17,878 bases of DNA, from IMG/VR virus record IMGVR_UViG_2531839195_000006. One strand, 5' to 3'. Under the pieces are notes generated by a model that had not been told where the DNA came from, did no database searches, and saw nothing but the letters and a program-made list of their open reading frames with translations. Each line of letters starts with the position of its first letter. Position 1 is the stretch's first letter. This DNA is from a virus. Lineage: Duplodnaviria; Heunggongvirae; Uroviricota; Caudoviricetes. Positions 16,716 through 17,878 of this stretch are shown in pieces. A program made the translations under genes and the position numbers.

Positions 16716-17878
16716 TTATTGAGGTGTCTCGGCTACTCCGCCGGAGGGGATTTGAACTTGACGCATAAGATTCGCGAAATCCATGCGTTGTGAATGAGTC
16801 TGGTCTGCATCTTTAAGAAGCAGCTCAGCGTTAGCACGAGCGTCTTTGCTGCGCTGTTGCTGGAATTGACCTACGAGCCTGAGGTACTCACGCAGTTCTG
16901 CCTGCTTGTCGAGGTCCATATTGTTGAAGATTTCTGCAATCTTCGCGGCGTTGAGTTGGTTTTGAGCTTCAACCTTGGCGGCTTCAACCTGAATCTGCGC
17001 CTGTTGGTTCTCTGCCTTGAGCAATTCAGCCTGACCTTGCAGAAGGATACCCTGCGCCTGAATTTGCTCTGCTGATGGCTGCTGCGGCTGTTGTTGTGCC
17101 TGCTGCACCATCTCCATCTCTTCAGGTGTTTCTGGTTTCTTCAGCCCCATCATCACCAGTTGCTTGTTCGCGTACTCTCGCATCATCTCGACGCCTTTAC
17201 CGTCAAGCAGCGTGAAGTATTGCAGCATCAGCATCTGGAACTCGTGGAGTACCTTGCGGAACCTTGGTGAGCAACTCCTGAATCTCTGCGCGGTTCTGTT
17301 CCTTCATACTCTGGAAGGATGGCCCAACGTCTGTATAGCACTCATATCGACCGCGAATGTCGTTGAGTGCGACCACATTGCCGGACTGGTAATCGACAAC
17401 TTGCGCATAGAGTTGAACGTCTTTCTCGCTTCCATCTTCAAGTGTCAGCGTTACATGACGAGGAACGTCATAAATATCGTTGACCATTGAGGCATAAATC
17501 TCGCCATCACGTCGCATTGCGGTAGCCAGGTTATCCTGAAACACGTATGTCTCAAGGTCTGCCCGCATGTTCAGTTGATTGACGGTATCAAAAGCGACCT
17601 GACCATTTGCCGCCTGCGCATCCACGCCAAGACTAGCCACTTCTTTCACTGCGTTGGTGGCAGCCTCAAGCATGTAAGCGTTGGCTTGCGGCACTTCAGG
17701 GTTTTCCATGTAGGAGATTGGACCAATCGGCAGGTCGTTACCGTTTTCATCAGTCCTGTTCTGCAGATAGTACGGATAGTCATCATTTCCGCCGTACATG
17801 TATTCGTAGCCTTCGATTTGCTCAGGGAAGAAGGTCGGTTTCTTCTTCGTACCGAGCAACAATATCGGCGTTGAACGA
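16716..17878 (-). pseudogene. Portal protein, P22 gp1-like, C-terminal part (5' end lies outside the window), frameshifted
   Basis: The upstream frame ends ...[27 protein letters not shown]. The downstream frame continues ...[22 protein letters not shown]...[18 protein letters not shown]...[21 protein letters not shown]...GGVAETPQ, which matches the P22 portal C-terminal barrel. One extra nucleotide near 17241-17253. Confidence 0.8.

Follow-up and report, generated by a model that had tools for sequence, protein, structure and literature searches.

A single-base insertion private to one draft contig splits the portal gene of a P22-like prophage remnant in the Shigella flexneri K-404 assembly

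Results

The stretch of DNA analysed here, referred to below as the window, is the whole of draft contig AKMZ01000035.1 (17,878 bp) in assembly GCA_000268025.1, which belongs to Shigella flexneri K-404; a published strain table (PMC6397287) gives Bangladesh as the origin of K-404 and places it with the 2a strains 301 and 2457T. The contig fuses virulence-plasmid DNA (1-3613) to a chromosomal prophage remnant (7188-17878) across the insertion sequence IS629 (3614-7187). The left 3.6 kb, a plus-strand segment carrying an open reading frame (ORF) for a UvrD-like helicase (69-2993) and an IS3 remnant, is essentially identical to the S. flexneri virulence plasmid (pCP301, 187.6-191.3 kb, and its relatives). 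IS629 itself (~3614-4138 and ~6380-7187) is split by a group II intron with ltrA (~4128-6383), a 507-aa ORF, the insertion lying in ORF2 of IS629. To the right, the phage genes of the window extend from portal to a truncated gp16, followed by IS629. They lie on the minus strand and include a truncated gp16-like gene for a 576-aa ejection protein/transglycosylase (7258-8988), in which phage homology ends at 7271 beside IS629, the coat gene (14497-15791) and an intact gene for a 303-aa scaffolding protein (15791-16702; PF09306), which carries private single-nucleotide polymorphisms (SNPs). The portal gene comes last and is represented by codons 335-721 only, as the contig end falls inside it and leaves the 5′ 334 codons off the contig.

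The remnant, about 12.6 kb long and P22-like, is common to the finished S. flexneri genomes examined. IS elements mark its bounds, and psiF, phoA, iraP and ddlA are its neighbours in ten finished chromosomes (AE014073.1 included). Its order in finished genomes is a 5′-truncated large terminase, portal (721 aa), scaffold (303 aa), coat (431 aa), gp4, gp10, needle protein, gp14, gp7, gp20, a gp16-like gene (576 aa) and IS629. The gp10 protein of the window occurs unchanged in 3255 blocks of a public gene index, ten finished S. flexneri chromosomes among them. Measured against the 499-aa large terminase of a complete E. coli prophage, the terminase of the remnant, which adjoins an IS element, has lost residues 1-152; the gp16-like homology stops about 573 codons into the 911-codon gene of APC_JM3.2 (window 7271); and finished genomes show no gene for a small terminase, a tailspike or an integrase alongside the remnant, nor does the remnant have lysis or immunity genes of its own. 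The element falls short of the full gene complement (packaging, tail, lysis, immunity and integration) that marks an inducible prophage. It is what is left of a P22-like (Lederbergvirus) phage, now cryptic, and because the terminase N terminus, the tailspike and the gp16 C terminus are missing in every strain examined, it was unable to form particles before, and irrespective of, any lesion in portal or coat. The original prediction had held that the portal and coat lesions are what prevents particle production, a claim that falls with the prior defect of the remnant.

Two further observations concern the state of these genes. The E. coli F1005 prophage, otherwise complete, has a gp16-like gene (16896-18614) that is annotated as a pseudogene without its C terminus and ends where the window homology ends (7271). 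The portal-to-gp20 genes are intact in most finished S. flexneri genomes, though the element is no functional phage, and the youth of the clone is the likely reason.

The arrangement to the left of the remnant differs from what finished genomes show. In CP058589.1 and CP151323.1, both finished, the same IS629::intron stands beside the remnant and leads into psiF, so the plasmid–chromosome join in the window is either a mis-assembly over a 525-bp repeat or a true event, through IS-mediated rearrangement or plasmid integration. A 99.9% identical copy of the intron is found elsewhere in CP054913.1.

Both portal products of the window, of 219 and 170 aa, match Pfam PF16510 (P22_portal), and the 2457T portal (721 aa) can be aligned over its full length to the 725-aa portal of P22 (residues 3-721 against 4-725 of 3LJ5; E = 0, 1278 bits). 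The head-assembly genes also follow the P22 order of terminase, portal, scaffold and coat. By profile match, colinearity and gene order, the gene is assigned to the P22 portal family, and the one respect in which it falls short is an intact frame: as deposited, the portal frame is broken at 17850-51 and again at 17244.

The break at 17244 is an extra C in the minus-strand portal gene (G on the plus strand), placed after portal nucleotide 1638 and between codons 546 and 547. Alignment with three close relatives gives the junction as CCA[C]GAG in the window and CCAGAG in the relatives, and in wider alignments five E. coli phages or prophages and 18 S. flexneri copies are all without the C. The frame break is caused by this single added nucleotide in ACTCCACGAG. 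Where relatives read GGT ACT CCA GAG TTC CAG ATG CTG (G T P E F Q M L), the minus strand of the window reads CAA GGT ACT CCA CGA GTT CCA GAT GCT GAT GCT GCA ATA CTT CAC GCT GCT TGA, and this TGA, at 17205-17203, closes the shifted portal frame (ORF 17203-17862, 219 aa). The insertion lies outside any homopolymer, and the C is unlike either flanking base. The original prediction had described a portal frame split by one extra nucleotide within 17236-17256, ending at 17203 and with its conserved C-terminal part continuing in another frame; the ORFs, the translation and the position of the extra base agree with that description. Deleting the C at 17244 restores the portal frame in a repaired translation, and if the two Cs at 17850-51 are also returned, the fragment becomes the 2457T portal except for A506T.

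On the near side of the insertion, portal codons ~345-546, 13 aberrant codons and the TGA occupy 17203-17849 (minus strand), as read from the ORF, its PF16510 match and the translation. On the far side, codons 547-721, which cover the end of the crown and the C-terminal barrel, resume in the other frame (16716-17243, minus strand) and stop at 16716; they are represented by the 170-aa ORF, which starts at an ATG at 17228, and their product is identical in amino-acid sequence to the 2457T portal over the same part. The predicted product of the broken gene is portal residues 1-546 followed by 13 aberrant residues. Ring-forming 'core' constructs of the P22 portal in the PDB (4V4K, 5JJ1) reach about residue 602, and because the alignment to P22 runs end to end, a cut at residue 546 would take away the C-terminal barrel together with part of the crown.

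The second portal lesion, TCACCG to TACG on the minus strand (17849-17851), had been overlooked in the original prediction and is carried by none of the relatives compared. In the indel catalogue it resolves into two single-C losses one base apart, at 17850-17851 and 28-30 nt from the contig end. Owing to this lesion, the 219-aa ORF does not share a frame with the opening 9 codons of the portal fragment, and the portal frame proper, read from the contig end, meets a stop after 18 codons. The lesion has the look of a ragged contig end; the contig stops within the portal gene, where the fetched reference copies show no break or repeat boundary, and the insertion at 17244 lies 635 nt from this end. 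Mutual compensation between the two portal lesions was considered and ruled out, as −2 and +1 fail to cancel.

The insertion is private to AKMZ01000035.1. An 81-nt probe over the site found it in none of 218 complete E. coli records (best match 80/81), it is absent from all 18 other S. flexneri copies, of which 11 come from finished genomes, and exact scans with a 26-mer over the junction gave no match in genome, metagenome and viral collections. Exact-protein look-up in the public gene index (the index in which the neighbouring gp10 protein is present in 3255 blocks) returned the 170-aa C-terminal ORF as called on the K-404 contig only. An equivalent break elsewhere would be expected to yield the same 170-aa called protein, as its sequence equals the 2457T C terminus. 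A genuine pseudogene should show its lesion in independent sequence data, and this one is absent from all other assemblies and collections examined.

Comparison with near-identical copies revealed six private indel events in the 17.9 kb of the contig. These are A7 to A6 at 3501 (within a 3.65-kb stretch that has no substitutions relative to plasmid pAR-0423-2), G5 to G4 at 10329, T5 to T4 at 14472, the coat lesion at 15687 (CC to C immediately behind a run of C6), the loss of two Cs at 17850-51 close to the contig end and the added C at 17244, which is the sole private insertion among them. Over the same 10.6 kb, ten finished S. flexneri genomes that served as a control have 0 private 1-2-nt indels and 0-3 private SNPs each, and one of the ten has a 37-nt duplication. 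The contig is a more than 10-fold outlier for single-base indels.

The coat lesion is likewise private to the K-404 contig and distinct from the coat lesions of other strains. It is a 1-nt deletion at ~15686-15687 (C6-T-CC-GG to C6-T-C-GG) that leaves a 392-aa ORF from an internal ATG. Three different coat 5′ lesions among S. flexneri assemblies (window 15660-15714) leave this one same downstream ORF: CC to C in K-404, C6 to C5 in CP026765.1 as well as in a group of SRR315557xx-8xx assemblies, and, in WPFR01000101.1, an apparent duplication of ~36 nt read from overlapping alignments. Common ancestry of the coat lesion through the shared 392-aa ORF was accordingly rejected, the sequences showing three separate 5′ lesions. 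The coat 5′ site may be a mutational hot spot around the S. flexneri-specific C6 run, where E. coli phages read ACCCC. Other damage to the remnant is seen in two finished genomes: CP026765.1, besides its coat frameshift, has its portal in two pieces (156 + 558 aa) and a shortened gp20 of 365 aa, and CP024981.1 has a 37-nt duplication in the scaffold gene (~window 16188). The small ORF between the coat gene and gp4 contains a CAGAGC hexanucleotide repeat (~14293-14310) of variable copy number, with +18 nt in E. coli CAVp367 and +6 nt in WPFR01000101.1 relative to the window.

Private substitutions in the window are strongly clustered: 16149-17370 (1.2 kb) holds 10 of the 11 private SNPs, and the adjoining 9.8 kb holds one. 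At seven of the ten (16980-16566) the allele is one known from E. coli P22-like phages, but the pattern is mosaic, since the allele at 16879 is that of S. flexneri. Private changes aside, the stretch 17878-17021 has the S. flexneri consensus base at each of the ~45 positions where the E. coli phages differ among themselves. A clean recombination patch finds no support in the five sampled donors, given the S. flexneri allele at 16879; the cluster may have come by recombination from a donor outside this sample, or may reflect a mixed consensus. The scaffold protein variant of K-404 is present on no other contig in the public index, as judged by exact-protein look-up.

Discussion

The change at 17244 belongs to one of two well-known kinds, an error of draft assembly or a frameshift in a cryptic Shigella prophage undergoing decay. 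On balance, we infer that the extra C is probably an error of the consensus, introduced by sequencing or assembly, with a chimeric consensus counted among the possible routes. A poorly supported stretch near the contig end would have let a spurious C into the consensus while the bacterial DNA stayed unchanged. We favour error because the extra base is confined to a single draft, the contig is so marked an outlier for indels, a second lesion sits at the ragged end and the insertion is of an unusual type. Real +1 events usually duplicate a neighbouring base, and an insertion unlike both neighbours is an unusual spontaneous mutation. Sequencing error, which the original prediction had mentioned as a caveat, has thus moved to the position of leading explanation. 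Some findings count against it. The event at 17244, the sole private insertion, does not bear the run-contraction signature of the other private indels, and real decay of the remnant is seen in CP026765.1, CP024981.1 and apparently WPFR01000101.1. Base calling in this stretch is also not random noise, because the nearby private SNPs mostly carry E. coli P22-like alleles. A pyrosequencing null-flow or incomplete-extension miscall after 'CC' is one speculative source of the C.

The main rival to a consensus error is a real and very recent +1 insertion in K-404, through neutral decay of an unselected remnant gene, and it has a substantial, if less than even, chance of being correct. Shigella genomes are rich in pseudogenes, and the element, with terminase residues 1-152 gone, gp16 cut by IS629 and no tailspike, integrase or immunity genes, was dead already and its genes under no selection. 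Other strains have lesions of their own in portal, coat, scaffold and gp20, which shows that such changes do occur; the private SNPs in the same 1.7 kb of K-404 look genuine, most of them lying at known polymorphic sites, and the insertion is not of the homopolymer type typical of sequencing error. However, a real mutation has to be reconciled with its presence in a single draft assembly only, and with five to six private single-base indel events against none in ten finished genomes, a contrast that assembly quality fits better. It would also have to be a non-duplicative +1 insertion, which is rare as a spontaneous event, and to lie 635 nt from a ragged contig end that bears another improbable double lesion.

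Among the routes to an error of the consensus, we regard as improbable the specific case in which reads of a second, related P22-like prophage were merged at the contig end. Such a chimera would yield a SNP cluster, a contig break and spurious indels, and the window has 10 of its 11 private SNPs in 16149-17370, seven with E. coli phage alleles in a mosaic, and ends in the portal gene where no fetched reference copy has a repeat boundary. Yet the stretch from 17878 to 17021 follows S. flexneri at its ~45 variable sites, and no second copy is visible around 17244.

We give very little credence to the idea that all six indel events are real and that K-404 is or was a mismatch-repair-deficient mutator, with a burst of run-length mutation in remnant and plasmid, or to the related idea that head genes are kept in S. 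flexneri for a host function that K-404 has lost. Programmed +1 ribosomal frameshifting, which anywhere from 17244 to the stop at 17203 would regain the C-terminal frame and give a full-length portal, is effectively refuted, as the extra base is conserved in no relative and all relatives have a single open frame, the site (GCU GCU UGA C) offers no slippery or CCC-N codon, no prfB-like CUU-UGA with an upstream Shine-Dalgarno and no stimulator, and the upstream 2-nt deletion breaks the frame regardless.

Whether the extra C is an error or a mutation, it has no functional meaning and adds nothing about particle production, because an intact terminase, the tailspike and a full gp16 were already missing. 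It amounts to no more than a further private lesion in a cryptic prophage remnant of a decay-prone genus, and the likelier case is an error in a 2012-era draft contig. The lesson for annotation is that the split portal on the K-404 contig is not evidence on prophage inducibility, and that this contig, with its ragged end, excess of indels and plasmid–chromosome join, should be handled with caution.

Compared with known systems, the portal gene of the window is akin to phage P22 gp1 (3LJ5/5JJ3; PF16510) through the full-length colinearity of its S. flexneri orthologue and the shared gene order, but the contig end removes everything before codon 335, and the frame is broken twice, at codons ~344 and 546/547. 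The remnants of 2457T (AE014073.1) and other finished S. flexneri genomes share 99.8% nucleotide identity with it over 11.5 kb, as well as the gene order and the IS629 cut of gp16; there the portal is intact at 721 codons and the coat gene at 431, whereas K-404 has private indels in both and a SNP cluster. E. coli P22-like phages and prophages (Dewey, IME10, APC_JM3.2 and F1005; Lederbergvirus) are 97-98.5% identical from portal to gp16, but are entire phages in which a tailspike and both terminase subunits are present, the gene tables of the Dewey record and the F1005 prophage listing lysis and regulatory genes as well, whereas the element in the window is a fragment. Finally, the private indels resemble the errors known from draft assemblies (homopolymer miscalls and ragged ends), in that five of the six events are a one-base run loss or lie ≤30 nt from the contig end, while the event at 17244 differs from run-length errors of that kind in being an insertion outside any run.
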